A stretch of 61,715 bases of DNA, counting the filler, from Thermodesulfobacteriota bacterium (lineage in GTDB: Bacteria > DASVDK01), in the NCBI GenBank assembly GCA_036381125.1. It is 6 parts of 6 records of this genome, joined end to end, with 100 filler letters (N's around TTAATTAATTAA, not from the genome) between each part and the next. Parts side by side here need not be neighbours in the genome. Positions count along the whole stretch, not along the records: positions 1 to 28,497 come from DASVDK010000242.1; 5 more parts are not named here. One strand, 5' to 3'. Within the stretch, counting starts at the first letter, position 1; each line of letters opens with the position of its first letter. The notes beneath the pieces are model-generated. The model had not been told where the DNA came from, did no database searches, and saw only the letters and a list, made by a program, of their open reading frames with translations. Both the position numbers and the translations under genes were made by a program. Shown here piece by piece: positions 1,095 to 26,113 of this stretch.

Positions 1095-2084
1095 TCACGA
1101 GTCGCCGCCGAGCGGCAGCTCGAGCCGCCCGTCGCGCGGCGCGAAGGTCGTCCCGAACTCGGCCGACAGGCGCGCGACGCGCTCGAGGATGGCCTCGCGC
1201 TCGTCGCCGGTCGCGATCCCCACGCGCGCGTACGAGAGGCTGACCGGGACGACGTCGAGCCCGACCACGTCGTCCCCCTCGATCGCGAGCCGGAAGAGGC
1301 ACGACCGGTCGTTGCGCAGCACGGGGTCGACGGCGTAGTCGTCGAGGAAGTCGCCGGTGTCGTAGAGGATCGGCCGGCCCCGGTAGACCTCGATGCCCTG
1401 GACCAGGTGCGCGCTGTGCCCGTAGTAGGCGTCGGCGCCCCTGTCGATCACCGCCTGGGCGAATGCGCGGAAGCGGTCGCTCGGCCGCTCGACCATGTTC
1501 GGCCCCCAGTGGTTCGAGAAGACGACGACCCGGGCCCCCGCGTCGCGCGCCGCGCCGATCATCACCTCGACGCTCTCGAGGACGATCGGGTCGAGCGAGA
1601 CCGGGAGGTAGTTCGTCCCGGGCCGGTCGGGCTCGGCCGCGAAGTCCGGCTCGTTGTCGGTCGCCGCCACGAGCGCGATCCGCGTGTCGCCGACGTCGAG
1701 GAGCGCCGGCTGCCTCGCCGCCTCGAGGTCGCGCCCCGCCCCGGCGTGGCGGATGCCGGCCGCGTCGAGGTGGGCGAGCGTGTCGAGGAGCCCCGCCTCC
1801 TCGAAGTCGAGCGTGTGGTTGTTCGCGAGGCTCACCGCGTCGATGCGGGCGGCCGCGAGGACGGCGACGGCCGAGGGGTCGGCCCGGAAGTGGAAGACCT
1901 TGGGCGTCCGCGTCCAGGGGTGCCGATGGGTCGTGATCGCGCACTCGAGGTTCACGACGCGCGCGTCGGCCTCCCGGAGGAGCGGCAGGACGTCGCCCCA
2001 CGGCTCCTCGGGCGTCATCGCCCGGAGCGCCTCGTTCACGCCCCGCCCGAGCATGACGTCGCCTGCCAGCGCGAGGATCGCCAT
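1095..2084 (-). CDS. CapA/PGA_cap family metallophosphoesterase
   Basis: GDVMLGRGV, VNLEC, SLANNHTLDF, HWGPN, GHSAH, GDFLDDY. Confidence 0.9.
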   Translation of the reverse strand: MAILALAGDVMLGRGVNEALRAMTPEEPWGDVLPLLREADARVVNLECAITTHRHPWTRTPKVFHFRADPSAVAVLAAARIDAVSLANNHTLDFEEAGLLDTLAHLDAAGIRHAGAGRDLEAARQPALLDVGDTRIALVAATDNEPDFAAEPDRPGTNYLPVSLDPIVLESVEVMIGAARDAGARVVVFSNHWGPNMVERPSDRFRAFAQAVIDRGADAYYGHSAHLVQGIEVYRGRPILYDTGDFLDDYAVDPVLRNDRSCLFRLAIEGDDVVGLDVVPVSLSYARVGIATGDEREAILERVARLSAEFGTTFAPRDGRLELPLGGDS

Positions 2085-2091
2085 GGCGCCG

Positions 2092-2478
2092 TTACGCCTC
2101 CTCCCAGAGGTCCTTGAGATCGCGCGGGAGCTGGGCCAGGACGTCGTCGGCCTCGCCGGGCGAGATCCGGTCCTTGAGAGCCCCGAAGACCATGAGCGTC
2201 ATCCAGCGCGCCTCGCGCGGCGACCTGAGCCCCGCGCCTCGTCTCACCCGCTCGAGGAACTCGATGAGGTGCATCTTCTCGGGCGTCCGGTTCGGCCGTT
2301 CGCCCGCGTGCCACATCGCCTTCAGCTCGCCGGGAAGCTGCGCCGCGAGCTGGTCGGCCTCCTCGGGCGTGAGGCGGTCGCGCAGCGTGTGGAAGACCGC
2401 CGCCGTGGCCCGCTCGACGACCTCGGGCGGCACCCGGCCCGTTGCGTCGATGATGCGCTGGAAGAACGGCATCGTCAT
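2092..2478 (-). CDS. DUF2267 family protein
   Basis: Start re-called (MTMPFF, GAGGTG RBS); two repeats of LRDRLTPEEADQLAAQLP / LKDRISPGEADDVLAQLP; start overlaps upstream stop. Confidence 0.8.
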   Translation of the reverse strand: MTMPFFQRIIDATGRVPPEVVERATAAVFHTLRDRLTPEEADQLAAQLPGELKAMWHAGERPNRTPEKMHLIEFLERVRRGAGLRSPREARWMTLMVFGALKDRISPGEADDVLAQLPRDLKDLWEEA

Positions 2479-3014
2479 GCTGTCCACCTCTCGCCGACCG
2501 GGAAGACGCGCGAGGCCTGCGGCCCCTGGCGCCCCTCCTCCACCTCGACCTCCACCGGCTGCCCCTTCGAGAGCGCCTCGAACTCGAGGTCGTGCAGCGC
2601 GTTGCGGTGGAAGTAGACCTCCTCGCCCTCCGGCAGCAGCACGAAGCCGTAGCCGCGCTCGGGGAAGAGCTTGTGGATGATCCCCTGAGGCCTCGGGCCC
2701 GGCGGCTTGCCGAAGCGCCTGAGCCGCTCGGCGTACTCCGCGAGTTCTCGCTCGAGCACCTCGAAGGCGGCGTGCAGGGCGTCGGTCATCTTTTCCCCCA
2801 CCTTGTCCACGCGCAGCGTCCGCCCCGGCATCAGGGCGAGGAGCGCGACCTCGTCGGCCCCCTGGCGGTGGTGCCGGTCGTGCTTGAGCGTCACGTGCAG
2901 CCGGACCATGCGCGGGTAGCGCGTCTCGAGGTCGCGCACCCGCGCGTCGATGAGCGTCCGCCAGCTCTCCTGCAGCGGGATGTCGCGGCACTGGTTCTCG
3001 ATCTCGACGTCCAT
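2475..3014 (-). CDS. HPF/RaiA ribosome-associated protein fused to a C-terminal cold-shock domain
   Basis: Start MDVEIEN; S30AE-like N-terminus (DALHAAFEVLEREL); CSD motifs GYGFV, VYFHRNAL, GRQGPQAS. Confidence 0.85.
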   Translation of the reverse strand: MDVEIENQCRDIPLQESWRTLIDARVRDLETRYPRMVRLHVTLKHDRHHRQGADEVALLALMPGRTLRVDKVGEKMTDALHAAFEVLERELAEYAERLRRFGKPPGPRPQGIIHKLFPERGYGFVLLPEGEEVYFHRNALHDLEFEALSKGQPVEVEVEEGRQGPQASRVFPVGERWTA

Positions 3015-3043
3015 GTCGTCTCCTCTCGATCGCCCGCGGGTGG

Positions 3044-4399
3044 TCACGCGGCGCCGTGGCGGCGCCGGGCCTCGCCCGCGGGCGCCAGGTGCTCCGAGAA
3101 CCACGCCACCGTCGCCTCGACGGCCCGCCGCAGGGCGGCCGGGTCCTCGAAGAGGTGGTCGCCGCCCGGCACCACCTCGAGGCGGTGCGGACCGGCCAGG
3201 CGGCCCGCGAGCGCCTCGTTGGCCGCCCGCGTCGGCGTGTCGTGCTCGCCCACGACGAGGAGCGTGGGGACCTCGACGCGCCAGGCGGCGTCCTCCGCCC
3301 CCGCCGGGTTGGCCGACCGGAGCACGAGCGCGCGGATGCGGGAATCGATCGAGGCGCGCAGGAGCGCCACGGCGCCGCCCGAGCTGGCGCCGGCGACGCC
3401 GATGCGCGTCTCGTCGGCGGCCCCTTCGGCGAGGACGGCGTCGATCGCCGCGCCGAGGTCCTCCACCTGCCGCTCGACGGTGCTCTCCTCGAGCGTCCCC
3501 TCGCTCTCGCCGTGCCCGGTGAAGTCGAACAGGCACGCGGCGAACCCCGCCGCCCTGAGCGCCTCGGCGGCCGCGCGGTTTCGCGGGCTCTCCTTCCCGC
3601 TTCGCCACCCGTGTGCGAAGAGGACGGTCGGGAAGGGGCCGGCGCCGGCCGGCAGGAGCAGCTCGCCGGCCAGCTCGAGCCCGCGCGGGTTCCGGAAGGT
3701 CAGCAGGCGGTCGCCGCCGACCCCCCCGCCGCTCCGCGCCCGCCTGGCCTCCTCGAGCATCGCCACGACCTCGTCGTCGGTGACCGGCGAGAAGTCGTCG
3801 TAGTACTGCCCCACCGCCACGAAGGCGTCGTCGACCACGAGGCCGACGAAGCGGCCGGCCTCGCGGCCGAAGCGCCTCGCCGCCTCCACCGACGCGCAGG
3901 GGACGGCGACGATCACCTCGGTCGCACCGTGGCGGCGGGCGTAGCGGACCGCCGCCTCCATGGTGAGGCCGGTCGCGAGGCCGTCGTCCACGAGCACGAC
4001 GGGCGCCGGCAGGTACGTCGCCAGCGGCGGGACGCGGTAGCGCGCCATCCGCCGCCGGATCTCGCCGAGGACCCTCTGCTTCGCCTCCATGACATCGTAG
4101 TCGCCGAGGCCGAGCGCCTCGACGGTTTCCGGCGTCGTGAGCACCTCGCCGTCCTCGTCGACCGCGCCGAACGCCAGCTCGGGCGCGAACGGCGCCGACA
4201 GCTTCCGCGCGTAGGCGACCGTCATCGGGGCCCCGAGCCGCCGCGCAACCGGGAGCGCCACCGCGACCCCTCCCCTCGGGATCGCGGTCACGACGCACCC
4301 CTCGGGCACCGTGCCGGCCAGCTCGGCCGCGAGCGCCTCGCCCGCCTCGGCCCGGTCTCGGAACGTCCGGCGCGCCCCCCATCCGCCTCGTCCGTCCAT
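3044..4399 (-). CDS. Phosphoribosyltransferase fused to an alpha/beta (dienelactone-type) hydrolase
   Basis: FRDRAEAGEALA, PRGGV, VLVDDGLATG; hydrolase GASSGG nucleophile, GEHD, GDHLF. Confidence 0.88.
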   Translation of the reverse strand: MDGRGGWGARRTFRDRAEAGEALAAELAGTVPEGCVVTAIPRGGVAVALPVARRLGAPMTVAYARKLSAPFAPELAFGAVDEDGEVLTTPETVEALGLGDYDVMEAKQRVLGEIRRRMARYRVPPLATYLPAPVVLVDDGLATGLTMEAAVRYARRHGATEVIVAVPCASVEAARRFGREAGRFVGLVVDDAFVAVGQYYDDFSPVTDDEVVAMLEEARRARSGGGVGGDRLLTFRNPRGLELAGELLLPAGAGPFPTVLFAHGWRSGKESPRNRAAAEALRAAGFAACLFDFTGHGESEGTLEESTVERQVEDLGAAIDAVLAEGAADETRIGVAGASSGGAVALLRASIDSRIRALVLRSANPAGAEDAAWRVEVPTLLVVGEHDTPTRAANEALAGRLAGPHRLEVVPGGDHLFEDPAALRRAVEATVAWFSEHLAPAGEARRRHGAA

Positions 4400-4438: not shown

Positions 4439-6214
4439 TCACATCCGGCAGGCGTCCGGGTCGCAGCTCGCGAAGTACTCGCGGCTCTCCGCCCGCTCGC
4501 CCACGCCGAGCGTCAGCACCTGGCGCCCCTTCGACCCCGACCTGAAGACGGTGACCCCCTTGAGCCCCATCCGGTGGGCCTCGAGGTAGGCGTCGCCGAC
4601 CTCGGCGGGCGTGGCGCGCTCGGGGAGGTTGATCGTCTTCGACACGGCGTTGTCGACGTGGGCCTGGAACGCCGCCTGGACCCGGAGGTGGTCGTGCGCC
4701 GACACCTCGGTCGCCGTCACGAAGAGCCGGCGCACCGCCTCGGGGACCCCCGGCACCCCCTGCAGGCTGACGCGCGCGACGACCTCGTCGATCACCCGTT
4801 CGGCGTCTCGCAGGTGGCGGCGCGCGTGGCGGACGAAGAGCGGGTTCACCTCGACCAGCGGCTCGCCCCCCAGGGTGTGCTCGCGCCGGTAGGCGAGCGC
4901 GAAGAGCGGCTCGATCCCGCCGCTCGTCCCGGCGATGATCCCGATCGTGCCGGTCGGCGCGATCGACAGCCGCGTGGCGTTGCGGATCGGCTCCCCCCGG
5001 GCCGCGAAGGTGCTCTCGCCCCAGGCGGGGAAGGGGCCCCGCTCCTCGGCCAGGTCGCGCGACGCCTGCCGCGCCTCCTCGTCCACGAACGTCATGATCC
5101 GGTCGGCCCACGCGACCGACTCGTCGGAGCCGTACGGCACGCCGAGCGCGATCAGGCACTCGGCGAACCCCATGACGCCGAGCCCGACCTTGCGGGTGCG
5201 GCGGGTCGCAGCCGCGATCTCGGGGAGCGGCTCCCGGTTCACCTCGACGACGTCGTCGAGGAACCGGATGCCGATGCGGACGGTCCGCCCGAGCCGCGCC
5301 CAGTCGACCTCGGCCCGGTCGCCGACCGTCCTGACCATGTTGGCGAGGTTGACCGAGCCGAGGACGCAGCTCTCGTAGGGCAAGAGCGGCACCTCGCCGC
5401 AGGGGTTCGTCGCCTCGATGGCCCCGAGGGCGGGTACCGGGTTGGCCCGGTTGACGGCGTCGACGAAGAGCAGGCCCGGATCGCCGGTCGCCCAGGCCGC
5501 CTCGACGATCCGATCGAAGACCACCCGCGCCGGAAGCCTTCGGGCCGTGCGGTTGGTGCCGGGGTGGACGAGGTCGTACTCGCCGTCCGCGCGGACCGCG
5601 GCCATGAACCGGTCGGGGACCGCGACGGAGAGGTTGAAGTTCCCGAGGCTCGTCCCGTCGCGCTTCGCGTCGACGAACTCGAGGATGTCGGGATGGTCGA
5701 CGCGGAGCACCGCCATGTTGGCGCCCCGCCGCCGGCCGCCGAGCTTGACGTGCTCGGTGGCGCAGTCGAAGACGCGCATGAAGGAGACCGGCCCCGACGC
5801 CTCGCCCCCGGTCGAGGCGACCACCTCGCCTCGCGCGCGGAGGGCCGAGAACGAGAACCCGGTCCCCCCCGCCGTCCGCTGCACGAGCGCCATGGCCCGC
5901 ACGGCACCGAAGATCGACTCCATGCTGTCCTCCACGGGGAGGACGAAGCAGGCCGCGAGCTGACCGAGGGGGGTCCCCGCGTTCATGAGCGTTGGCGAGC
6001 TCGGCAGGAAGTCGCGCGCCTCGATCACCGCGGCGAAGGTCTCCTGCCACCTGGCCGCCTCGCGGGCCGAGCCGAGGAGGAGCTCCGCGTGGGCCACCCC
6101 GCGCGCCACCCGCTCGACGAGCGCCTCCGGCGTCTCGACGACCTGGCCCTTCGCGTCGCGCCGCAGATAGCGCGCCGAGAGGACCCGCAGGGCGTTGGGC
6201 GACAGTTCGCGCAT
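4439..6214 (-). CDS. nrdJ: Adenosylcobalamin-dependent class II ribonucleotide reductase
   Basis: PSSPTLMNAG, LAACFV, GGRRRGANM, ATNPCGE, SCVLGS, IAPTGT, AVSKTIN, C-terminal CDPDAC. Confidence 0.93.
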   Translation of the reverse strand: MRELSPNALRVLSARYLRRDAKGQVVETPEALVERVARGVAHAELLLGSAREAARWQETFAAVIEARDFLPSSPTLMNAGTPLGQLAACFVLPVEDSMESIFGAVRAMALVQRTAGGTGFSFSALRARGEVVASTGGEASGPVSFMRVFDCATEHVKLGGRRRGANMAVLRVDHPDILEFVDAKRDGTSLGNFNLSVAVPDRFMAAVRADGEYDLVHPGTNRTARRLPARVVFDRIVEAAWATGDPGLLFVDAVNRANPVPALGAIEATNPCGEVPLLPYESCVLGSVNLANMVRTVGDRAEVDWARLGRTVRIGIRFLDDVVEVNREPLPEIAAATRRTRKVGLGVMGFAECLIALGVPYGSDESVAWADRIMTFVDEEARQASRDLAEERGPFPAWGESTFAARGEPIRNATRLSIAPTGTIGIIAGTSGGIEPLFALAYRREHTLGGEPLVEVNPLFVRHARRHLRDAERVIDEVVARVSLQGVPGVPEAVRRLFVTATEVSAHDHLRVQAAFQAHVDNAVSKTINLPERATPAEVGDAYLEAHRMGLKGVTVFRSGSKGRQVLTLGVGERAESREYFASCDPDACRM

Positions 6215-6253: not shown

Positions 6254-6655
6254 CTAGCCGCTCACCCAGGCGCGCAAGAGGTCGGTCTCCGTGAGGATCC
6301 CGACGAGGCGGCCCTCGTCCACGACGGGGAGTGAGCCGACCCGCAGGTCGAGCATGACGCGAGCCGCCTCCTCGACCGGCCGGTCGGGGTCCACGGTGGT
6401 CACCTCGCGCGACATCACGTCGCGTACGGCGAGCCGCGCCATCGCCTGGTCCGCGGCCTGGACGGAGCCGGGTGTGGCGACCTCGGGCCGCGCGAGCGGC
6501 AGGTCGCGGTCGCTGACGATGCCGACCAGGCGCCCCCCCTCGATCACCGGCAGGTGCCGGAAGCCGCCGCGCCGCATCCGCCGGTACGCCTCCGCGACCG
6601 GCATCTCTGGCGTCGCGGTCTCCGGCAGCGGTTGCATCCATTCCCTCACTCGCAT
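6254..6655 (-). CDS. CBS-pair domain protein
   Basis: Start MRVREWM after AGGAG; RHLPVIEGGRLVGIVSDRD and SLPVVDEGRLVGILTETD. Confidence 0.9.
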   Translation of the reverse strand: MRVREWMQPLPETATPEMPVAEAYRRMRRGGFRHLPVIEGGRLVGIVSDRDLPLARPEVATPGSVQAADQAMARLAVRDVMSREVTTVDPDRPVEEAARVMLDLRVGSLPVVDEGRLVGILTETDLLRAWVSG

Positions 6656-6747: not shown

Positions 6748-6763
6748 CGCAACGTGGATGCCA
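6748..6763 (-). promoter_or_regulatory. Sigma-54 -24/-12 promoter of the CBS-nrdJ operon
   Basis: Minus strand TGGCAT-CCACG-TTGCG (GG-N10-GC). Confidence 0.8.
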
Positions 6764-6816: not shown

Positions 6817-6852
6817 GAGGCATGACCGCCCCACCTGCGGCCCCCGTGTCCC
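6817..6852. promoter_or_regulatory. Tandem palindromic enhancer (UAS) candidate
   Basis: GAGGCA-TGAC-CGCCCC (6817) and GCGGCC-CCCG-TGTCCC (6837). Confidence 0.6.
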
Positions 6853-6871: not shown

Positions 6872-7810
6872 TCACGTCCGGCTCACCAGATCGCGGACCG
6901 GCTCCCCGCGATGCAGGCGCAGGATCGCCTCGGCGAGGAGCGAGGCGACGCCGACCCGCTCGATCGGCGCGGCGAGGTCGGCCGGCGCCTCGACGCTGTC
7001 GGTGACGACGAGACGGCGGATCGGCAGCGGCGCGAGCCGCTCGGCGGCCCGCCGGGGCAGCACCGCGTGCGTCGCAGCGACGACGATGTCCGGCTCGGCG
7101 CCCGCATCGAGCATCGCATGCGCCCCCGCCTCGATCGTCCCGCCGGTGGAGATCATGTCGTCGACGATGATCGGTCTGCGTCCCCGCACCTCTCCGGTCA
7201 GGCCGCTCGTCACGACGTCCGCCGCGCCGACCCGGGTCTTGTGCACGACGGCCATGGGGAGGTCGAGCAGGCGCGCGAACCGCTCCGCCCGGTGGACCGC
7301 GCCGAGGTCCGGGGAGACCACGACGCCGTTGCCGGCCGCCTCCCGGCCGATCGCCTCGACGAGCCGCGGCACGGCGCTCAGGTGCTCCACCGGAACCGGG
7401 AAGGCGCTCTCGATCGCGGCGGCGTGGAGGTCCAGGGCGACGACCCGGTCGACGCCGGCCGTCCCGATCAGCGACGCGACCATGCGCGCCCCGAGCGGCT
7501 CACCGGGGTGCGTCCGGCGGTCCTGGCGCGCGTAACCGAGGTAGGGCACGACGGCGGTGACGCGGGCCGCTCCGGAGAGCCGGCAGGCGTCGGCCAGGAA
7601 GAGGAGCTCCACCAGCCGCACGTCGGCCGGCGGGCTCGTCGGCTGGACGACGTAGACGTCGGCCCCCCGCACGTGCGCCTCGACCTCGACGTGCAGCTCG
7701 CCATCCGGGAAGCGCTCGATTCGGCAGGCGGCCGGCTCGGTCCCGAGGGCGCGCGCCGTGGCGCGGGCCAGCTCGGGGTGGCCGGGTCCGGCGATCAGGA
7801 CCAGCGTCAT
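6872..7810 (-). CDS. prs: Ribose-phosphate pyrophosphokinase
   Basis: Start MTLVLIAG after GGAGG; FPDGE, PYLGYARQDRR, DLH, VVSPDLG, IVDDMISTGGT. Confidence 0.93.
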   Translation of the reverse strand: MTLVLIAGPGHPELARATARALGTEPAACRIERFPDGELHVEVEAHVRGADVYVVQPTSPPADVRLVELLFLADACRLSGAARVTAVVPYLGYARQDRRTHPGEPLGARMVASLIGTAGVDRVVALDLHAAAIESAFPVPVEHLSAVPRLVEAIGREAAGNGVVVSPDLGAVHRAERFARLLDLPMAVVHKTRVGAADVVTSGLTGEVRGRRPIIVDDMISTGGTIEAGAHAMLDAGAEPDIVVAATHAVLPRRAAERLAPLPIRRLVVTDSVEAPADLAAPIERVGVASLLAEAILRLHRGEPVRDLVSRT

Positions 7811-7837
7811 GGCCACGCCTCCTCGGCGCCTTCCGGT

Positions 7838-7853
7838 CGCAACGTCGGTGCCA
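7838..7853 (-). promoter_or_regulatory. Sigma-54 promoter of prs
   Basis: Minus strand TGGCAC-CGACG-TTGCG, near-consensus. Confidence 0.85.
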
Positions 7854-7953: not shown

Positions 7954-7969
7954 CGGCACGCCGCTTGCG
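7954..7969 (+). promoter_or_regulatory. Sigma-54 promoter of polX
   Basis: CGGCAC-GCCGC-TTGCG, ending 39 bp before the ATG. Confidence 0.75.
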
Positions 7970-8007: not shown

Positions 8008-9771
8008 ATGAAGAACCTCGAGGTGGCCCGTCTCTTCGACCTGATGGCCGACCTGCTCGAGCTTTCGGGCGGCAACCGCTTCCGCATCCGGGCCTACCGC
8101 CGGGCCGCGCGCAACATCGAGAGCCTCGCCGAGGACCTCGAGACCGTCGCGGCCGAGGGGCGACTCGACGACATCCCGGGGGTCGGCGAGGACCTTGCCG
8201 GCAAGATCGCCGAGTACCTGGCAACCGGTCGGATCCGGGCCCTCGACGGGCTCCGGGCAGCCGTACCGGCCGGCGTCGCCGACCTCCTCGCCGTGCCGGG
8301 GATCGGTCCGAAGACCGCCATGGTCCTCTACGAGAAGGCGGGGGTCCGCACCATCGATCGCCTGAGGGCGCTGGCGCAGGCGGGCAAGCTGCGGGGCCTG
8401 CCCGGCATCCAGGCGAAGACCGAGGCGAACATCCTCAGGGGGATCGCGATCGTCGAGCAGGGCCGGGCGCGCGTGCCGCTCGGGCGCGCGCTCCTCCTGG
8501 CCGAGGACCTCGTGCGGGCCCTCGAGGCGGTCCGCGGCGTCGACCGGGTCGCCCTGGCCGGCTCGATCCGCCGGGGCAAGGAGACGGTCGGGGACATCGA
8601 CATCCTGGTGACCGCCGCCGACCCGAACGCGGTGATGGCGGCCTTCGTCGACCTCCCGCAGGTCGCCGAGGTGCTCGAGCGGGGCACGACGCGGACCTCG
8701 GTCCGGCACCGCGACGGCATCCAGGTCGACCTGCGGGTCGTGGAGCCGGCGAGCTTCGGCGCCGCGCTCCAGTACTTCACCGGCTCGGCCGGGCACAACA
8801 TCCGCATCCGCGAGATGGCCGGCCGGCTCGGTCTCAAGGTCTCGGAGTACGGCGTCTTCCGGGAGGACTCCGGCCGGCGGGTCGCGGCCGCGACGGAGGA
8901 AGACGTCTACGCGGCCGTCGGCCTGCCGTTCATCCCGCCCGAGCTGCGCGAGGACGCGGGCGAAATCGAGGCGGCGCTGGCGGGGAGGCTGCCGTCGCTG
9001 GTCGAGCCGGACGACATCCGCGGTGACCTGCACTGTCACACGCGCGCCTCGGACGGGCACCACAGCGTCGACGAGCTGGTCGCCGCGGCGGCCGCACGCG
9101 GCTACGCGTACGTGGCCGTCACCGACCACAGCGCGTCGGCCACGATCGCGCACGGGCTCTCCCGGGAGGCGCTGCCCGCCCACCTGGCGAGGATCCGCGC
9201 GGCGGAGGCCGCCCATCCCCGCATCCGCGTGCTCGCCGGGACGGAGTGCGACATCCTGCCCGACGGCCGGATGGACTACCCCGACGAGCAGCTCGCCCGG
9301 TTCGACCTCGTGATCGCGGCCGTGCACAGCCGCCTGCGGCAGTCGAAGGCCGAGATGACGCGTCGCATCTGCCGGGCGCTGGCAAACCCGTACGTGCACG
9401 TCCTGGCCCATCCGACCGGGCGGCTCTTCGGCGAGCGGGCCCCGTACGAGGTCGACCTCGACGCCGTGCTCCGAACGGCGCGCCGCTTCGGCAAGGCGGT
9501 CGAGATCAACTGCTGCCCGCAGCGGCTCGACCTCGACGGCACGCACGCGCGGCGGGCGCGGGACCTCGGCGTGCTCGTCGCGATCGACACCGACACGCAC
9601 GCCCTCGATCAGCTCGGCACGATGCGGCTCGGCGTCACGACGGCGCGGCGAGGCTGGGTCGGCCGGGAGCAGGTCGTCAACGCCTGGCCGCTCGAGCGGC
9701 TCCTCGCCTTCACGCGCGGGCCGCGGGCCGGCGCGGCCGCGCCGGCCCGGCGCGCCGCCGGGCGGCGCTGA
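8008..9771 (+). CDS. polX: DNA polymerase X with PHP domain
   Basis: RIRAYRRAA, HhH motifs IPGVG/VPGIGPK, GDIDIL, VDLR, YFTGS; PHP residues DLHCHT, TDHS, DTDTH. Confidence 0.95.
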   Translation: MKNLEVARLFDLMADLLELSGGNRFRIRAYRRAARNIESLAEDLETVAAEGRLDDIPGVGEDLAGKIAEYLATGRIRALDGLRAAVPAGVADLLAVPGIGPKTAMVLYEKAGVRTIDRLRALAQAGKLRGLPGIQAKTEANILRGIAIVEQGRARVPLGRALLLAEDLVRALEAVRGVDRVALAGSIRRGKETVGDIDILVTAADPNAVMAAFVDLPQVAEVLERGTTRTSVRHRDGIQVDLRVVEPASFGAALQYFTGSAGHNIRIREMAGRLGLKVSEYGVFREDSGRRVAAATEEDVYAAVGLPFIPPELREDAGEIEAALAGRLPSLVEPDDIRGDLHCHTRASDGHHSVDELVAAAAARGYAYVAVTDHSASATIAHGLSREALPAHLARIRAAEAAHPRIRVLAGTECDILPDGRMDYPDEQLARFDLVIAAVHSRLRQSKAEMTRRICRALANPYVHVLAHPTGRLFGERAPYEVDLDAVLRTARRFGKAVEINCCPQRLDLDGTHARRARDLGVLVAIDTDTHALDQLGTMRLGVTTARRGWVGREQVVNAWPLERLLAFTRGPRAGAAAPARRAAGRR

Positions 9772-9779
9772 GCCGCGGA

Positions 9780-12197
9780 TCAGGCCGGTCCCCTGGCCGC
9801 GAAGGCGCGCGCCGCCTCGGCGAAGCCGCGCAGCCGCGCCTCGACGAGCTGGTTCACGCTCCCGTCCGGGAACCGTCCCGCCGCGTCGCGCTCGCCGGCC
9901 GGCCGGCCGAGCAGCAGCGCTATCGCCTCGTCCACGTCCCCCACCGGGTGGATGCGGAACCGGCCCGCCTCGACCGCCTCGACGACGTCGCGCCGGACCA
10001 TGAGGTTCTTGACGTTGCTGCGGGGGATCAGCACCCCCTGCTCCCCCGTGAGGCCGCACTCGCGGCAGACGTCGAAGAAGGCCTCGATCTTCTCGTTCAC
10101 CCCCCCGACCGCCTGCACCTGGCCGTGCTGGTTGATCGAGCCGGTGACGGCGAACGCCTGCGAGACCGGCAGGTCGGCCAGGGCCGAGATCAGCGCGCAG
10201 GCCTCGGCCAGCGAGGCGCTGTCGCCGTCGACGGCGCCGTAGGTCTGCTCGAAGACGAGGCTCGCCGCGAGCGAGAGCGGGGCCTGCGACGCGTACCGGG
10301 CGCCGAGGAAGCCCTCGAGGATCAGGACCCCCTTGGAGTGGATCGGCCCGCCGAGCTCGACCTCGCGCTGGATGTCGACGACCTCCCCCTTGCCCACCCG
10401 CACGCGCGCGGTGATCCGCGCGGGATGCCCGAAGGCGGCGTCGCCGAGCGGGACCACGGAGAGGCCGTTCACCTGTCCGACCGTCGCGCCGGCGGTGTCG
10501 ATGAGGACGGTCCCGCGCCGGATCGACTCGATGACGCGCTCGCGCATGCGGCCCGTACGGCGGCGCTGGGCGTCGATGGCCGCCTGGACGTGCTCGCCCG
10601 TGACGACGGGCGCCGCCGCCGTCTCGGCGTGGAACTCGGCCTCCCTGAGCAGGTCGACGACCGGCCGCATGTGGACCGAGAGCTTCTCGGCGTCCCCCGC
10701 GAGGCGGGCGGCGTGCTCGATGACGCGGACCACGGCGCTCCGGTCGAAGGCGCGCAGGCGCTCGCGGCGGACGAGCGTCGCGATCAGGTTGGCGTAGAGC
10801 GCGTGCGTCTCCGGCCGCCGGTCCAGGCTCTCCTCGAAGTCGGCGACGACCTTGAAGAGCTCGGGGACGTCGGGGTCGACGGCCGCCATCAGATGGTAGA
10901 GGAGCCGTTCCCCGACCAGGATGACCTTCGTCCCGCCGAAGGGGATCGGCTCGGGCTCGAGCGACACGGTCGGCACGACCGCGAGGAGTTCGGCGGGGGG
11001 CTCCATCCGGATCTCCCGGGAGCGGATGGCCCGCTTGAGCGCCTCCCACGCGAACGGCTGCTGCAGGACCTTGCGGGCGTCGAGGATCAGGTACCCGCCG
11101 CTCGCCCGGTGGAGCGCGCCCGGCTTGATCAGGGTGACATCGGTGAGCAGGGCCCCGAACTGGGCGACGTGCTCGATGCGGCCGACGAGGTTCGTGTAGG
11201 TCGGGTGGTCCTCGTGGACGATCGGCGCGCCCCGCGTGGCGCCGTTGTCGACGAGGACGTTGACCGCGTAGCGCCGCGCCGCGGCGCCGTCCCTCTGGTT
11301 GCGGCGGAACGCCTGGGCGAGCATCGCCTCGAGCCCCATCGGCCCCGCCTCGAGGAACTCGTCGGCGCGGTCGATGACGTCGCGTTCGACCTCGTCGAGG
11401 TACTCGAGGACGGCCGGCAGGTCCCGATAGCGGGCGCGCACGCCGTCGAGCACGCGGCGGGCGACCGAGGTCGACGTCTCCCGGTCGAGCCCCTTCATCG
11501 CCTCGTGCTGCTCGTGCCCCCACTCGTGGAGCCGCTGGAAGAACGCCTGCACGTCGGAGCCGACCCGCTCCATCTCGGCCTGCATCCGCGCCTGCTCCGG
11601 CCTGGAGAGCTGCGCCAGGTCGGCAGGCCTGAGCGGGGCGCCGTCGCGCAGGGGGGCCACGACGAGGCCCCCCTCGGTTCGCACCACCGCGACCCCCCGC
11701 TGCCTCGCCCGCTCCTGCACCTCCGCGAAGGCCTGCGCCTGGCGCTCGTTGAACCGGGCGATCAGCTCCTGCTTGCGCGTGCGGTACTCCTCGCTGTCGA
11801 ACGCGGCACGCATGGCGTCGCGGATGTCGGCCACGGCCTGCTGCATGTCGTCGCGCAGCCGCGAGCCGCGCCCCGGAGGGAGCGAGAGGACGCGGGGCCG
11901 ATGGGCGTCGGCGAAGTTGTGGACGTAGCAGCGGTCCGGCGGCGCCGCCTCGCCCGCCGCTCGCGGCCCGAGGATCTCGCGCAGGAGCGTCTCCTTGCCG
12001 ACGCCGGGCGGGCCCATCGCGAAGAGGTTGTAGCCGTCGTGCCGGATGGTCAGCCCGAACCGGACCGCCTCGACGGCGCGCTCCTGGCCCACCATCCCGG
12101 TGGTCCCGACGGCCTCGTCCGTCGTCGCGAAGGGGATGTCGTCCGGCTCACACCGCCGGTACAGGTCGGCGGCCGACAGGGTGGACGCGGCACGCAT
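9780..12197 (-). CDS. Lon-like (LonC/AAA_32) ATP-dependent S16 protease
   Basis: GQERA, GPPGVGKE, PGALHRASGGYL, GQVNGLSV, catalytic DGDSAS and NEKIEAF. Confidence 0.9.
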   Translation of the reverse strand: MRAASTLSAADLYRRCEPDDIPFATTDEAVGTTGMVGQERAVEAVRFGLTIRHDGYNLFAMGPPGVGKETLLREILGPRAAGEAAPPDRCYVHNFADAHRPRVLSLPPGRGSRLRDDMQQAVADIRDAMRAAFDSEEYRTRKQELIARFNERQAQAFAEVQERARQRGVAVVRTEGGLVVAPLRDGAPLRPADLAQLSRPEQARMQAEMERVGSDVQAFFQRLHEWGHEQHEAMKGLDRETSTSVARRVLDGVRARYRDLPAVLEYLDEVERDVIDRADEFLEAGPMGLEAMLAQAFRRNQRDGAAARRYAVNVLVDNGATRGAPIVHEDHPTYTNLVGRIEHVAQFGALLTDVTLIKPGALHRASGGYLILDARKVLQQPFAWEALKRAIRSREIRMEPPAELLAVVPTVSLEPEPIPFGGTKVILVGERLLYHLMAAVDPDVPELFKVVADFEESLDRRPETHALYANLIATLVRRERLRAFDRSAVVRVIEHAARLAGDAEKLSVHMRPVVDLLREAEFHAETAAAPVVTGEHVQAAIDAQRRRTGRMRERVIESIRRGTVLIDTAGATVGQVNGLSVVPLGDAAFGHPARITARVRVGKGEVVDIQREVELGGPIHSKGVLILEGFLGARYASQAPLSLAASLVFEQTYGAVDGDSASLAEACALISALADLPVSQAFAVTGSINQHGQVQAVGGVNEKIEAFFDVCRECGLTGEQGVLIPRSNVKNLMVRRDVVEAVEAGRFRIHPVGDVDEAIALLLGRPAGERDAAGRFPDGSVNQLVEARLRGFAEAARAFAARGPA

Positions 12198-12327: not shown

Positions 12328-12343
12328 TGCAAGCCGGGCGCCA
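12328..12343 (-). promoter_or_regulatory. Sigma-54 promoter of the Lon-like protease
   Basis: Minus strand TGGCGC-CCGGC-TTGCA. Confidence 0.78.
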
Positions 12344-16297: not shown

Positions 16298-16300
16298 CCG

Positions 16301-16579: not shown

Positions 16580-17277
16580 GGAGTCCTCCCGTCGCGATCC
16601 GCGTGAGCCTTGCCCGGATGGGCGCGCGTTGCCGCGGCAATGTACACCATCGCCAGGACCGCGAAGATGTACGCCTGGATGAGCCCCGTCAGGAGACCGA
16701 AGAGCTGCATGACGATCGGAAAGAAGAACGGGGCGATGCCGATGAGGATGGCCACGATCATCGTGCCGCTCATCATGTTGCCGTAGAGCCGCACGGCGAG
16801 CGCCACGGTCCTCGAGATCTCGCCCATGACGTTGATCGGCAGCATGAGCGGCGTCGGGTGCAGGTAGGTCCGCAGATACCGGAGAACCCCCTGCCGGGCC
16901 ACGCCGAAGAGCGGCACCGCGACGAGCACGCAGAGGGCGAGCGCCACGGTGGTCGACAGCGAGGCCGTCGGCGGGACGAACCCGGGCACGACACCGAGGA
17001 TGCTGCTGGTCGCGATGAAGAGGAACAGCGTCCCGACGAACGGCAGGTACGGCCCCGGCTCCTGCTGGCTCACCTCGCGGATCTGGGCGCGGATCGCGAG
17101 CACGATCACCTCGAGCAGGTTCTGCCACCGCGTGAGCCGCGTCGAGGCGGACAGCCGGCGCGTGACCAGGCACGAGACCCCCGTGAGGAGCCCCATGACG
17201 AGCCAGGTGTAGGCGATCGTCGCGTTGACCTCGTACGCGCCCCATCGCCAGACGACGACCGCGTCGGTGTTCGGCAT
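16576..17277 (-). CDS. atpB: N-ATPase a subunit
   Basis: [39 protein letters not shown]. Confidence 0.93.
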
Positions 17278-17600
17278 CAGGAACGGCCCTCGTCCCGGAC
17301 GAGCCGGCCCGACGGCCGGCGCGGTCCGCCGAGCCCGCGGCGCGCCGCCCCGACGGCTGCGGTCCTCACGGCGAGGAGCCCCGCCATCGCCGCCGCGAGC
17401 CGCTCCCACCGGCCGTCCATGACCAGGAGGATGCCGATCGCGAGGACCGCGAACCGAACGGCGGCGCCGGCGACGAGCCAGCGCGCCGGCGCGGCCACCC
17501 GGTGGAGGCGGCGCACCAGGAGCCAGAGCCCGCCGAAGTGGACCGCGCCGAGCGCGATGCCGGCGAGGAACGGGAGGACGAGGTCTCGTGCGTCAGTCAT
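17277..17600 (-). CDS. atpR: N-ATPase-specific subunit AtpR
   Basis: LGAVHFGGLWLLVRR, membrane Arg residues; lies between atpQ and atpB. Confidence 0.85.
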   Translation of the reverse strand: MTDARDLVLPFLAGIALGAVHFGGLWLLVRRLHRVAAPARWLVAGAAVRFAVLAIGILLVMDGRWERLAAAMAGLLAVRTAAVGAARRGLGGPRRPSGRLVRDEGRS

Positions 17601-17876
17601 CGCGACTCTCCCGCGTCACCCAGTACCAGGCGTTCAGGCACCCCAGGGCGACGCCGCCGAGAAGGCCCGCCAGGGTCCAGGAGATCGGCCCCGGGAACCG
17701 GCGGTCGAGCCAGACGCCGAGGGCGATGCCGACGAGCGTCGGCACCGCGACCGACCAGCCGACGAGGCCGAACATGCCGAGGCCGAACCAGACCCCCCTG
17801 CGGCCGGCGAGGCGGGCCCGGCGCTTGCGCCTCGCCTTGCGGCCGATCGTCTCGGGCACCGAGGGCCGCCGCCGCG

Positions 17877-17880
<4 letters not shown>
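17593..17880 (-). CDS. atpQ: N-ATPase AtpQ (AtpZ/AtpI family)
   Basis: GTG start; WFGLGMFGLVGWSVAVPT, GVWLD, GCLNAWYW. Confidence 0.85.
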
Positions 17881-23381
<5,501 letters not shown>

Positions 23382-23385
<4 letters not shown>

Positions 23386-24266
23386 ACCCGTTTCCGTCGA
23401 TCCTGGTGCCGCTCGACGGCTCGAGCACCGCGGCGCGGAGCCTCGGGTGCGCGACCTGGCTCGCCCGGCGCCTCGGCTCCCGGCTGCACGTCCTCAACGC
23501 GGGCCCCGATCCGCTGCCGGCCCGCGAGGCGCTCACGCGCCTCAAGGTCCCGGAAGCGGCGTGGCCGCTCGTCGTGCTGCACCAGGCGCCGGCCTGCCCG
23601 GCCGACGCCGTCCTCGAGGCGGTCGCCCAGTACGAGGTCCAGCTCGTCGTGATGACGGCGCGGGGCAAGACGGCCGAGGCGCAGGCGGCGGGCGACACGA
23701 CCCGCCTCGTCGGGCACGTGACGCACGCCGTCCTCGAGCGAAGCCCGGTGCCGGTGCTGCTGCTGCCGCCGGCCTACCGCGAGGAGCTGCCGTGGACGCG
23801 CGTCCTCGTCCCGGTCAGCGGCGAGGCCGAGGCGGACGCCGCGCTGACCCTCGCGGTCCGGCTCGCCAGGGCGCTCGACCTCGGGGTCCACGTCGTGCAC
23901 GTGATCCCGCCGGGCGACGGCGACGCCGACCTCGCCGCCAGGGCGCGCTACGCGGACGCCCTCCACCACGAGTACCCGCGCCAGCTCGAGGAGGTCGTCA
24001 GCCGCGCCCTCGCCGACTGCACCCCGGGGGAGCGCTGCCGCGTCGAGGACGTGGCGCTCGGCTACGGCGAGGTCGACACCGAGCTGCTCGCCCTGATCGA
24101 GCGCAAGCGGGTGAGCCTGCTCGTGATCGGCTGGCACGGGTGTCTCGCGAGCGGCCGCGCTCCGGTGCTCAGGCGCCTGATCGAGTCGGTCGCCTCCCCG
24201 CTCCTGCTGGTCAAGCCGGCCGAGCCGCAGCCGTTCCGGCTCAAGGTCGGCGAGGAGATCGAGTAA
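23382..24266 (+). CDS. Tandem-domain universal stress protein
   Basis: ILVPLDGS, VVMTARG, GHVTHAVLERSPVPVLL, second VLVPVSG domain; ATGA overlap with the upstream gene. Confidence 0.85.
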
Positions 24267-24275
24267 CGGGCGCCC

Positions 24276-25751
24276 TCAGAGGTCGAGGCCGAGCGCCGGG
24301 CCCGCGACGAAGTAGCCGACCAGCGACACCAGCACGATCCCGAGCAGGTTCAGCCAGAACCCGGCGCGGACCATCTGCCCGAGTCGCACGTAGCCCGACC
24401 CGAACACCATCGCGTTCGGCGGCGTCGCCACCGGGAGCATGAACGCGAGGCTCGCCGCGAGCGTCGCCGGGACCAGGAGCAGCGTCGGGTCGAGCCCCAG
24501 CGCCGTCGAGACCCCCGCCCCGCCGAGCACCGGCATCAACGTGTTCGCCACCGCCGTGTTGCTCGTCAGCTCGGTCAGGAAGATCACCCCGGTCGCGACC
24601 GCCGCCACCACGAGAAAGGGGTGCGCGCCGCGGAGCGACTCGAAGCCGCCGCCGATGAAGCGGTCCACGCCGCCTCCCTGGATCGCCGCGGCGAGGCTGA
24701 GCCCGCCCCCGAAGAGGACGAGGATCCCCCAGGGGAGCTTCGACGCCGTCTCCCAGTCCATGGCGAACGTCCGGGTCCGGACGTCGACGGGGATCAGGAA
24801 GAGGGCGCCGGCCGCGATGACGGCGATCCCCTCGTCGGTGAGCCCGGTGAGTCCGGTCAGCGCCGCGATCTGCGGCCTCGCGACCCACGCGAGCGCCGTC
24901 AGCGCGAAGACGACGGCCACGACCCGCTCGCCGCGGCTCATCGGCCCGAGCCGGCTGAGCTCGTCCCGGATCATCTGCCGCCCGCCCGGGACGCGGCCGA
25001 GCCGCACGGGGAACGCCACGGCGGTCAGGTACAGCCACGCGAGCGGCAGGAACGCCGCGACGAGCGGCAGGCCCACCGCGAGCCACGCCGTGAAGCCGAT
25101 CTCCTGCCCGTAGACGCGCTGGACGTACCCCTTGAGGACGACGTTCGGGGGCGTCCCGATCAGGGTGCCCACGCCGCCGATGCTCGCGGCGTAGGCGATC
25201 CCGAGCACGAGCGCGGCAGCGAAGTCGGCCCCCGGCCGCCCCGCCCCCTCCTCCGCTCGCGCGCGCACCAGGCGGATCACGCTCACGCCGATCGGCAGCA
25301 TGATGGCGACCGTGGCGGTGTTGGAGACCCACATGCTCATCGCCGCCGAGGCGAGCATGAAGCCGGCGACGAGCCCGCGCGGCCCGGTGCCGACCATCAG
25401 GACGGTCGCGAGCGCGATCCGCCGGCTGAGTCCCCAGCGCTCCATGCCGAGGCCGAGGACGAAACCGCCCATGAAGAGGAAGATCACCGGGTCGGCATAC
25501 GGCTCGGCCGCCTCGCGGATCGTCCGGGCGCCGAGGAGCGGCAGGCACGCGATCGGGACCAGCGCCGTGGCGGCGAGCGGCACCGCCTCGGTGAGCCACC
25601 AGACGGCCATCAGCACGCCGACGCCCGCGATGACGCGCCCCTCGTGGGTCAGGCCCCGGCCCCCCTCCGCCGCCTCGGGGGCCAGGAGGTACACGACCAG
25701 CCCGAGCACCGGGCCGGCCGCGAGCCCCGCCCACTGGACGCCGACCTGCAC
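24276..25751 (-). CDS. DASS/SLC13 anion:sodium symporter
   Basis: WWLTEAVP, SMWVSNTAT, GTLIGTPPN, TELTSNT, FMLPVATPPNA; true start may be slightly upstream. Confidence 0.92.
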   Translation of the reverse strand: MQVGVQWAGLAAGPVLGLVVYLLAPEAAEGGRGLTHEGRVIAGVGVLMAVWWLTEAVPLAATALVPIACLPLLGARTIREAAEPYADPVIFLFMGGFVLGLGMERWGLSRRIALATVLMVGTGPRGLVAGFMLASAAMSMWVSNTATVAIMLPIGVSVIRLVRARAEEGAGRPGADFAAALVLGIAYAASIGGVGTLIGTPPNVVLKGYVQRVYGQEIGFTAWLAVGLPLVAAFLPLAWLYLTAVAFPVRLGRVPGGRQMIRDELSRLGPMSRGERVVAVVFALTALAWVARPQIAALTGLTGLTDEGIAVIAAGALFLIPVDVRTRTFAMDWETASKLPWGILVLFGGGLSLAAAIQGGGVDRFIGGGFESLRGAHPFLVVAAVATGVIFLTELTSNTAVANTLMPVLGGAGVSTALGLDPTLLLVPATLAASLAFMLPVATPPNAMVFGSGYVRLGQMVRAGFWLNLLGIVLVSLVGYFVAGPALGLDL

Positions 25752-25801
25752 CCGGCTGGCCGGCTGCGGCTCCGGCGCGCCGGGGAGGTCGCCTGCCGCG
25801 T

Positions 25802-26113
25802 TCAGCGCTGGCCGAGCCGCCCGAGCGTGCTGTCGAGCGCGCGCTCGAGCTTACGCGTGGCGCCGTCGATCGCCTGCCGCATCGTCTCGGCCTGGTCGCT
25901 CGCCGCGACCGGATCGAGCCCGGCGAGGCGCGCCTCCAGGACGCAGCGCTTGTCCTCTCCCGACTTGAGGCTGTTCACGTCGCTCAGGTGGACCTCCAGG
26001 CGCGTGATGCGATCGGCGAAGCGGTCGAGCGCCTCCCGCATCATCACCTCGACCTCGCGGGCCAGGCTCTCGCCCCCCTGGATCTTGCCATCGGTGTTGA
26101 CCTGAACGTGCAC
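25802..26113 (-). CDS. HPF/RaiA family ribosome-associated protein
   Basis: GTG start after GGAGGA; QVNTD, RITRLEVHLSD, DKRCVLEARLAG. Confidence 0.85.
   Translation of the reverse strand: MHVQVNTDGKIQGGESLAREVEVMMREALDRFADRITRLEVHLSDVNSLKSGEDKRCVLEARLAGLDPVAASDQAETMRQAIDGATRKLERALDSTLGRLGQR

Follow-up and report, generated by a model that had tools for sequence, protein, structure and literature searches.

Introduction

The closest described counterparts of the locus presented here are gene systems that respond to low oxygen. We analysed a stretch of 61,715 nucleotides, filler included, from an uncultured Thermodesulfobacteriota bacterium of soil (GenBank assembly GCA_036381125.1), to which we refer as the window, and in particular a gene island at positions 1095-26113, which a first-pass annotation had described as a clustered set of DosR-like dormancy genes under the control of sigma-54. 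In the best reading of its sequence, this island would be a two-component, enhancer-dependent regulon for low oxygen or stasis.

In Mycobacterium tuberculosis, the DevR targets of the DosR regulon are reported to include Rv0569-Rv0570, Rv0571c, Rv0574c-Rv0573c, Rv2006, Rv2626c, Rv2623 and Rv0079 (PMC3177182), and the annotations given in the main descriptions of this regulon cover a B12-dependent ribonucleotide reductase (RNR), a phosphoribosyltransferase (PRTase), a polyglutamate-synthase-like protein, a glycosyl hydrolase/otsB1, RafH and RtcB (PMC5309233, PMC7753917). In Myxococcus xanthus, the published account of NmpRSTU presents a heme-dependent kinase relay to an NtrC-like activator, NmpR, which binds GCGCA-N5-TGCGC upstream of sigma-54 promoters; a CBS gene, a universal stress protein (USP) gene, cbb3 oxidase and HemN are induced by hypoxia, the regulon is autoregulated, and a parallel to the mycobacterial dormancy USPs is drawn by its authors (McAllister et al. 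2025, PMC11841059). As for Burkholderia cenocepacia, the lxa locus is described as a group of 50 genes in 50.7 kb, induced at low oxygen and needed for anoxic survival, and its overlap with the DosR regulon was noted in the same report (Sass et al. 2013, PMC3721108).

The first-pass annotation knew of no description of an island like the present one. This holds for the arrangement itself, for which we found no report in the literature, although further members of the known regulons may be given in supplementary tables of the cited literature. It does not hold for the idea behind it, since a sigma-54/NtrC hypoxia regulon with CBS and USP genes has been published for Myxococcus (PMC11841059) and a DosR-like low-oxygen island for Burkholderia (PMC3721108).

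Composition of the window

In the window, six contig pieces follow one another, with a linker N44-TTAATTAATTAA-N44 at each of the five junctions; this spacer carries stops in all six frames. Because separate contigs are strung together in this way, adjacency across the linkers is meaningless, and genes beyond position 28497 cannot be counted as neighbours of the island, which lies wholly inside piece 1 (1-28497). Genes were called by the periodicity of G+C at third codon positions and then scanned against Pfam and NCBIfam; this gave 24 genes in eight transcription units, all of them on piece 1 (Table 1). The G+C content of the stretch is about 75%.

Sigma-54 promoters of the island

The pattern TGGC-N7-TTGC occurs eight times in the window versus 0.89 expected, and none of 100 dinucleotide shuffles reached this number. 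Five of the matches are found in intergenic regions of the island, aimed at the next gene, and the three intragenic ones (12727, 29774 and 44364) were treated as chance. Two additional sites with one departure each head polX and the GH65 gene. A clear -24/-12 promoter is present in seven of the eight transcription units; that of the eighth, which encodes a ribosome hibernation promoting factor (HPF) and a DASS transporter, is weak.

These sites were compared with those of G001, a fragmented metagenome-assembled genome (MAG) of 3.3 Mb labelled Thermodesulfobacteriota, which carries the same island over several contigs at 90-94% nucleotide identity (about 93%) and encodes RpoN (PF04552, 219 bits). 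Three intergenic regions, 85-92% identical, could be aligned, the lon/VIT1 region not being recovered from G001, and in the five promoters that they made comparable (CBS, prs, polX, USP/N-ATPase and GH65) the -24 and -12 elements are unchanged.

In G001, a contig of 27.4 kb (C72) prolongs the island past the gene of the LigD phosphoesterase, which comes there after a sigma-54-headed unit with Cpn60, nicotinate phosphoribosyltransferase (NAPRTase) and USP. The order on this contig is USP, NAPRTase and Cpn60-type chaperonin; class V fructose-bisphosphatase; USP, archease and RtcB; then USP, MacB/HlyD exporter, CBS and three USPs; an NtrC-type regulator; a kinase of 988 aa; and finally three USPs and CBS. 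Six further TGG[CT]-N7-TTGC sites lie in the intergenic regions of C72 ahead of these units. When the thirteen promoters of the window and C72 were aligned, the consensus CTGGC-N7-CTTGCA was obtained; a weight matrix built from them was too GC-biased for other phyla, and the generic pattern was used there instead.

Seven well-placed promoters and a weak one, the invariance of the five comparable ones in the relative and the dyad that they have in common upstream strongly indicate that the units of the island are under sigma-54 control, in agreement with the enhancer-dependent regulation that had been proposed for them.

A common dyad upstream of the promoters

The hexamer GGGACA is present 15 times in the window. 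The island has four divergent intergenic regions, and five of the copies are located there. This count and an inspection of the aligned sequences upstream of the thirteen promoters led to the dyad GGGAC-N6-GTCCC; a k-mer search for common upstream words had returned mostly GC-rich noise. With at most one mismatch there are nine copies in the window and three in C72, and seven of these twelve lie upstream of sigma-54 promoters.

A set of 20 sigma-54-type sites was gathered from piece 1 of the window, C72 and two further contigs, L129 and L003. The dyad (at most one mismatch) was found 40-180 nt upstream of eight of these sites versus 2.4% of 4000 random positions, an enrichment that is partly circular since the consensus was derived from the window and C72. 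For the same reason L129 and L003, which were not used to define it, offer a fair test, and there three of six sigma-54 sites have the dyad. The distance between dyad and promoter is 86-93 nt in seven cases. The perfect copy of the window is placed between two divergent operons; its distance is 86 nt to the promoter of USP/N-ATPase and 90 nt to that of GH65.

Activator and sensor kinase

The regulator encoded on C72 has the architecture REC-AAA+-HTH_8 (PF00158, 242 bits) with the GAFTGA motif, and its gene stands beside that of the 988-aa kinase with multiple PAS and GAF domains. Two PAS domains of this protein have matches in the heme domains of FixL, at 1e-14 to 1e-13, and also in DosP. Both carry PER[YF]RAxHREH[VI]RRF, in which the His and Arg that align with the heme pocket of FixL are kept; we take this His to be the proximal heme ligand and these Arg to be heme contacts. 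The protein has additional PAS and GAF domains, and no globin was seen in it.

The succession of kinase, activator, dyad, promoter and USP observed on C72 recurs on L129, an unrelated metagenome contig whose PRTase fusion is 52% identical to that of the window. On it, a FixL-like kinase (PERLRGAH) is divergent from an activator 63% identical to that of C72, and the latter is followed by a sigma-54 site with a dyad 89 nt upstream, three USPs and CBS. L129 also encodes a pyruvate:ferredoxin oxidoreductase behind a sigma-54-like site (12361-15970, minus strand), and an archaeal-type SAM synthetase (PF01941) is found both in L129 (6109-7305, minus strand) and in L003 (4227-5438, minus strand).

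It is because of the extension in C72, with its activator and FixL-like kinase, and of its recurrence on L129 that we read the island as an oxygen-responsive sigma-54 regulon. The low-oxygen signal suggested by the first-pass annotation is probably right, backed as it is by a GAFTGA activator next to a FixL-like heme-PAS kinase in the island of the relative, and we infer that the genome of the window carries the same two-component pair.

With the FixL-FixJ system of rhizobia, G001 shares the match of the kinase PAS domains to the FixL heme domains and the conserved His and two Arg positions of the pocket. The partner differs, being an NtrC-type sigma-54 activator and not FixJ, of the NarL/LuxR type, and the kinase has two tandem putative heme-PAS domains besides the additional PAS and GAF domains. 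The likeness to NmpR, as that system is described, extends over the whole proposed chain, from a heme-dependent kinase to an NtrC-like activator, a dyad and a sigma-54 low-oxygen regulon with CBS and USP genes. However, the site is GCGCA-N5-TGCGC there and GGGAC-N6-GTCCC here; a protoglobin kinase acts there in a four-component phosphorelay, whereas the kinase of G001 is of the FixL type (PAS, GAF and HisKA domains); and the seven promoters and 23 genes reported there are scattered and include cbb3 oxidase, HemN, hemerythrin and pilR, in contrast to the contiguous island of RNR, HPF, PRTase, CapA, GH65 and N-ATPase genes described here (PMC11841059). At 6780-6795 on the minus strand we noticed a separate GC palindrome, TGCGC-N6-GCGCA, which precedes the CBS promoter by about 25 nt and lies immediately upstream of its -24 element. 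Its halves are similar to those of the NmpR site with their order reversed, and one base of its spacer is different in G001.

Comparison with the DosR regulon

All the genes that had been listed for the island were recovered on one contig by the gene calls and the Pfam and NCBIfam scans, namely those of a class II RNR, a fusion of PRTase and hydrolase, a CapA protein, a HAD-GH65 fusion, a CBS pair, two USPs and two HPF-like proteins, and so were the N-ATPase, Prs, PolX, Lon and VIT1 named as further cargo. Nine of the 24 genes match cargo of the DosR regulon at the level of family or architecture: as its genes are described, the B12-dependent RNR corresponds to Rv0570, the PRTase to Rv0571c, the CapA-like protein to Rv0574c, HAD-GH65 to Rv2006, CBS to Rv2626c, and the ribosome factor to Rv0079, with the USPs in addition. 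The extension in the relative adds the NAPRTase of nicotinate salvage (Rv0573c) and RtcB (Rv2631), according to a review of the regulon (PMC5309233). No counterpart in the DosR regulon exists for the remaining 15 genes, those of the N-ATPase, Prs, PolX, Lon, VIT1, DASS and DUF2267. For Rv2006, the domain order is the one that we presume it to have.

For the common families, the likeness does not go beyond this level. In searches against solved structures, the best relative of the CBS protein was the AcuB-like 5awe (1e-34), with Rv2626c at 1.3e-10; the single-domain USP matched 4wny best (4e-17), followed by Rv2623 (9e-8) and Rv1636 (2e-4); the tandem USP did not reach Rv2623 at 1e-5; and the matches of both HPFs were non-mycobacterial, with no mycobacterial factor among them. 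Among CBS, USP and HPF proteins, those of the island thus show no greater closeness to the mycobacterial members than to other homologues, and this agrees in part with the outcome by which the first-pass annotation would have its reading refuted. In the genome-contig scan, no mycobacterial locus appeared among the best 80 of 584 relatives; no DosR-type regulator (REC with a LuxR/GerE helix-turn-helix) was present among the Pfam-scanned genes of piece 1; and hspX, nitroreductase, tgs and narK2 were not seen in the window or in C72. The label DosR-like given by the first-pass annotation is therefore overstated, and what stands of it is an overlap in families and architectures.

These results bear on an alternative in which the resemblance is superficial, common stress families having become chance neighbours, without any single programme, in a genome in which sigma-54 serves many genes. 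The absence of special closeness for CBS, USP and HPF, the 15 genes without counterpart and the loosely conserved neighbours of the PRTase fusion would all fit it. Nevertheless, the rarer architectures are the ones held in common with block 2 of the DosR regulon and with Rv2006, that is PRTase-hydrolase, CapA, NrdJ/Z and HAD-GH65, plus NAPRTase and RtcB in G001, as far as the published target lists and annotations show (PMC3177182, PMC5309233). Moreover, the same families gather round the PRTase fusion in distant phyla (L014, L133, L051, L075 and L158), and a dyad at a fixed distance is common to the units. We regard chance assembly as very unlikely.

With respect to regulation, the island would, like the DosR regulon, be under two-component control with a palindromic operator that has a GGGAC half-site (DosR motif G4G5G6A7C8T9, PMC3177182). 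They differ in that an NtrC-type AAA+ activator would act here on sigma-54 promoters, whereas DosR, of the NarL/LuxR type, acts on promoters of the housekeeping sigma factor; the pentamers are 6 nt apart here and 4 nt in DosR; and the sensor in the island of the relative is of the heme-PAS, FixL-like type, unlike the heme-GAF sensors DosS and DosT. The consensus of the DosR box has 20 bp. Dev boxes of this type, with GGGACT half-sites at DosR spacing upstream of promoters that do not depend on sigma-54, were not found, the pentamers of the island being 6 nt apart and about 90 nt upstream of sigma-54 promoters. A scan of 80 loci for the DosR-spaced form GGGAC-N4-GTCCC gave three exact matches in 1.27 Mb without any phylum pattern. 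The pentamer itself (window 20250-20265; C72 24120-24135) is identical to that of the DosR box apart from the gap of 6 instead of 4 nt. This may be a coincidence in GC-rich DNA, and it could also be more than chance.

Distribution in other lineages

The PRTase-hydrolase fusion has 702 homologues, the best of which (94% identity) is that of G001, followed by proteins of Rokubacteria/NC10 at 60-67%. Some homologues carry a third domain, either DJ-1/PfpI (P0004, 652 aa) or CBS (P0115, 610 aa), and the CBS-fused form would fit a functional link between the adjoining CBS and PRTase genes.

Loci were taken around about 160 of these homologues from many phyla, and raw counts were made on 80 genome loci. 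With the locus L001 excluded, RtcB was present in four, NAPRTase in three and Cpn60 in one of the genome loci. The most telling cases are L014, with the order RtcB-CapA-PRTase-Prs, and L133, with CapA-PRTase-RNR, together with L051, L075, L158 and L160. The DNA upstream of cargo genes was scanned in the other 159 loci, and 10 of 228 upstream windows contain a sigma-54 motif on the sense strand, as compared with 2.1 expected and with three on the antisense strand; it precedes, for instance, Cpn60 in L130 and, in a Terriglobia MAG, a USP gene and PolX. The families themselves recur loosely around the PRTase fusion.

Such a distribution raises the possibility that the island is a horizontally mobile cassette, which would move between soil phyla with its own regulator; this is compatible with the explanation that we favour. 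In line with it are the patchy occurrence of HAD-GH65 (G001 and one weak match among 40 relatives), the related gene sets in loci of Acidobacteriota, Gemmatimonadota and Actinomycetota, the break of synteny with G001 at about position 481, and the statement in a review (PMC5309233) that horizontal transfer may have been the route by which genes of the DosR regulon spread. At the break, G001 has USP-NAPRTase-Cpn60 behind a sigma-54 promoter (C72 from 4978) and the window an unrelated open reading frame (ORF). A comparison of the remaining pieces of the window with the rest of C72 gave no match. Against mobility, there is no compositional anomaly, with a G+C fraction of 0.73-0.76 over island and flanks, and no integrase, tRNA or repeat boundary was detected in the gene calls and Pfam scans. 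We consider a mobile cassette of this kind improbable.

Proposed function of the island

We find it reasonably probable that the region acts as a single regulon island dependent on sigma-54, through which cells would survive without growing when oxygen or energy is limiting. Falling oxygen would be sensed by a FixL-like heme-PAS histidine kinase, whose gene was seen in the island of the relative and not in the window, and which would phosphorylate an NtrC-type response regulator (REC, AAA+ with GAFTGA, and HTH_8). The regulator would then bind the dyad GGGAC-N6-GTCCC, centred about 80 nt upstream of the -24 element, and open the sigma-54 promoters of at least eight units here and six more in the relative. 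The cargo would serve ribosome hibernation, through two HPFs, one of them fused to a cold-shock domain; the oxygen-independent supply of deoxynucleotides and phosphoribosyl pyrophosphate (PRPP), by the B12-dependent RNR and Prs; DNA repair in non-replicating cells, by PolX and the LigD phosphoesterase; and proteolysis, by the Lon-like protease. Sugar-phosphate and disaccharide turnover may be the task of HAD-GH65, metal and anion handling that of VIT1 and DASS, and the USPs and CBS proteins would act as nucleotide-binding stress proteins. The N-ATPase would export ions at the expense of ATP and so hold ion gradients.

To the partial circularity of the dyad enrichment, several observations must be added that weigh against this explanation. 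The total number of dyads in the window (nine, at most one mismatch) is not above that of a Markov model (about eight), and their placement alone is unusual. The promoters of prs and polX, and those of fbp, usp-rtcB and usp19 in C72, lack a good dyad (3-4 mismatches, with a half-site at most); therefore more than one activator may act, and G001 has at least 12 of the NtrC type. The activator and the heme-PAS kinase are found in the relative and not in the window, where the PAS domain of the kinase at 27188-28497 has, in the alignment, a deletion at the position of the FixL-type heme histidine. A fragment of another activator (33303-34384) was discarded as regulator of the island, as it belongs to a different piece of the window and shares only 34% identity with the activator of C72. 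Co-location of the cargo is loose, with counts out of 80 loci of 11 for USP, six for Prs, five for RNR, four each for DUF2267, HPF and CBS, and two each for PolX and CapA. Finally, among 40 relatives of G001 a full-length HAD-GH65 was found in G001 only, plus one match of 34% identity (G015).

Several of these points would suit a general stress, stationary-phase or desiccation island, in which several sigma-54 activators would respond to energy charge, nutrients and redox state and oxygen would not be the main signal. Such an island would account for the five of thirteen aligned promoters without a good dyad, for the number of NtrC-type activators in G001, for a PAS-GAF kinase without the heme histidine beside the island of the window, and for the further PAS and GAF domains present in the 988-aa kinase. 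HPF, USP, Lon, PolX and N-ATPase are not specific to oxygen, and in the Burkholderia report about 30% of the low-oxygen genes respond in stationary phase too (PMC3721108). What speaks against it are the FixL-type heme-PAS domains, two in tandem in the kinase of G001 and one in that of L129, adjoining a conserved activator; the oxygen-independent RNR of the island and the pyruvate:ferredoxin oxidoreductase behind a sigma-54-like site on L129; and a dyad common to units across the whole island. On balance, a general stress island seems to us unlikely, and the low-oxygen or stasis regulon is the reading that we retain.

Under this low-oxygen reading, the lxa locus is a further counterpart. It is likewise a contiguous island, with many USPs, a class II RNR, a kinase related to pentose/PRPP metabolism, an ion-pumping ATPase and a protease. 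Its regulation differs, however: the published account gives a TGA-N6-TCA motif of the Anr/FNR type with candidates of the CRP family, and does not present sigma-54 promoters or an NtrC-type activator. Its cargo differs as well, with polyhydroxyalkanoate synthesis, acetate kinase and alcohol dehydrogenase in lxa, and HPFs, PRTase fusion, CapA, GH65, PolX and N-ATPase in the present island (PMC3721108).

The N-ATPase and other genes of the region

The alternate F1F0 ATPase, or N-ATPase, was reportedly described by Dibrova et al. in 2010. The operon of the island has the features of this class, as it begins with beta and epsilon, includes AtpQ and AtpR, and encodes an F1 subunit of the alternate type, the beta subunit passing TIGR03305 (alternate F1F0) with 778 bits against a cut-off of 752. 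In the c subunit (16301-16579, minus strand; ...ALGEG...AAAQG...IVESSGIY...) a glutamate is present in helix 1 and VESSGIY in helix 2, residues that we assume to fit the sodium-binding motif. What differs is that the operon is headed here by a USP gene and by a sigma-54 promoter with the island dyad, which would place it in a putative low-oxygen regulon; our literature search found no report that links the N-ATPase to such a regulon.

The first operon, on the minus strand, has the order CBS, RNR, PRTase-hydrolase, HPF-cold-shock, DUF2267 and CapA. The best solved match of the HPF-cold-shock fusion is chain 9 of 9t0z, annotated as ribosome hibernation promoting factor, which has 183 aa and covers both parts. 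As length and layout are the same, this type of fusion may perhaps already have been characterised structurally on the ribosome. For VIT1, a start at the long ORF 12327-13061 was rejected, its first 67 codons being, as judged by eye, rich in Arg and Pro, and a ribosome-binding site precedes 12528. Two more GH65 paralogues were seen in G001, on contigs C248 and C503 (L089 and L090), 49% and 42-58% identical in parts.

The ORFs 26653-27058 (plus strand) and 2-511 had no match in Pfam or NCBIfam; read by eye, the former resembles a helix-turn-helix protein and the latter a fragment of a SAM-methyltransferase. A sigma-54-like site, CGGCTC-N5-TTGCT (26595-26610, plus strand), kept in G001, precedes ORF 26653-27058, which is upstream of the PAS-GAF kinase, and both genes may form a second sigma-54-controlled regulatory unit.

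Table 1. Coordinates of the genes, candidate promoters, dyads and linkers of the window.
Feature	Position	Strand	Evidence or remarks
LigD 3'-phosphoesterase domain protein, island edge	528..1013	+	PF13298, 144 bits
CapA/PGA_cap protein, last of the six-gene CBS operon	1095..2084	-	PF09587, 258 bits
DUF2267 protein	2092..2487	-	PF10025, 110 bits
HPF (S30AE)-cold-shock-domain fusion, ribosome hibernation factor	2475..3014	-	PF02482 and PF00313
PRTase-alpha/beta-hydrolase fusion	3044..4399	-	PF00156 and hydrolase families
Adenosylcobalamin-dependent class II RNR	4439..6214	-	TIGR02504 NrdJ_Z, 669 bits (cut-off 400); PF02867, PF00317
CBS-pair protein, first gene of the operon	6254..6655	-	PF00571, two stretches
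Ribose-phosphate diphosphokinase Prs	6872..7816	-	TIGR01251, 304 bits; Pfam
Family X DNA polymerase PolX with PHP domain	8008..9771	+	PF14716, PF14791, PF02811
LonB/LonC-like protease	9780..12197	-	PF13654, PF20436, PF20437, PF05362
VIT1-family iron/manganese transporter	12528..13061	+	PF01988, 121 bits
N-ATPase operon, nine genes in order of transcription: beta, epsilon, AtpQ, AtpR, a, c, b, alpha, gamma	13079..19669	-	Pfam, including PF12966 (AtpR) and PF09527
Single-domain USP, heads the N-ATPase operon	19666..20127	-	PF00582, 118 bits; 4-nt overlap with the beta gene
HAD (beta-phosphoglucomutase family)-GH65 glycoside phosphorylase/hydrolase fusion	20425..23385	+	PF03632 (366 bits), PF03636, PF00702; TIGR02009 above cut-off
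Tandem-domain USP	23382..24266	+	PF00582, three stretches; overlaps the HAD-GH65 gene
DASS/CitMHS-type anion transporter, downstream of the short HPF	24276..25751	-	PF00939, 225 bits
Short HPF/YfiA-type ribosome hibernation factor	25802..26113	-	PF02482; solved match 7m4z, ribosomal subunit interface protein, 1e-14
PAS-GAF-HisKA sensor kinase, cut by contig end	27188..28497	+	Pfam; solved-structure matches weak
Response-regulator/sigma-54 activator fragment, C-terminus cut by contig end	33303-34384	-	
RpoD-like sigma-70 gene, beside the activator fragment	34839-36224	+	
Sigma-54 promoter, CBS-RNR-PRTase-HPF-DUF2267-CapA operon	6749..6763	-	TGGCAT-N5-TTGC; same in G001, intergenic region there 85% identical
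Sigma-54 promoter, prs	7839..7853	-	TGGCAC-N5-TTGC; same in G001
Sigma-54 promoter, polX	7954..7969	+	CGGCAC-N5-TTGC; same in G001
Sigma-54 promoter, lon	12329..12343	-	TGGCGC-N5-TTGCA
Sigma-54 promoter, VIT1	12488..12502	+	TGGCAG-N5-TTGCA
Sigma-54 promoter, USP-N-ATPase operon	20165..20179	-	TGGCCC-N5-TTGCA; same in G001
Sigma-54 promoter, GH65-USP operon	20340..20355	+	TGGCAC-N5-CTCGCA; -24/-12 kept in G001, one spacer base differs
Tentative weak sigma-54 promoter, HPF-DASS	26252..26267	-	CGGCAC-N5-ATGCC; GG-N10-GC kept, also in G001
Dyad-like site, GGGAC half-site intact, full dyad with 2 mismatches	6837..6852		89 nt upstream of the CBS promoter; half-site kept in G001
Dyad-like site, 2 mismatches	12399..12414		VIT1 promoter at 89 nt, lon promoter at 71 nt
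Perfect dyad GGGACGGCGCTGTCCC (20250-20265) and one-mismatch copy (20274-20289)	20250..20289		kept in G001
Two dyads, one mismatch each, 21 nt apart, upstream of HPF-DASS	26330..26366		kept in G001 except for one change each
Linkers between contig pieces	28498-28597, 33203-33302, 36446-36545, 48043-48142, 57501-57600		

Conclusions

How uncultured soil bacteria enter non-growing states and survive in them is largely unexplained, and the DosR regulon is usually seen as an actinobacterial speciality. The present island supplies a regulon that can be tested, with a promoter type, a candidate operator at fixed spacing, and candidates for both the activator and the oxygen sensor, and in it part of the DosR cargo reappears under sigma-54 control, which permits very tight off-states. 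It would also give one physiological context to genes of unassigned role, such as the PRTase-hydrolase fusion, CapA, DUF2267, the HPF-cold-shock fusion and the N-ATPase, and other genomes as well as metatranscriptomes can be screened for its composite signature, in which the dyad is followed after about 73 nt by the -24/-12 promoter.

More tentatively, it is possible, if rather doubtful, that a portable toolkit for non-growing survival at low oxygen exists across many soil phyla, that its regulatory front end has repeatedly been swapped and that the N-ATPase is a member of the regulon in the sigma-54 version. If this were true, the core of the toolkit would be formed by the PRTase-hydrolase fusion, CapA, the B12-dependent RNR, NAPRTase, RtcB, HPF, CBS and USPs. 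Its front ends would be DosS/T-DosR in Actinobacteria and an Anr/FNR-type regulator in Burkholderia, whereas this lineage, Methylomirabilota-like bacteria and part of the Acidobacteriota would use sigma-54 together with a FixL-like kinase and an activator of the NtrC type. The N-ATPase would then gain its first physiological setting, in which ATP-driven ion export would hold the gradients of the cell when respiration stops.

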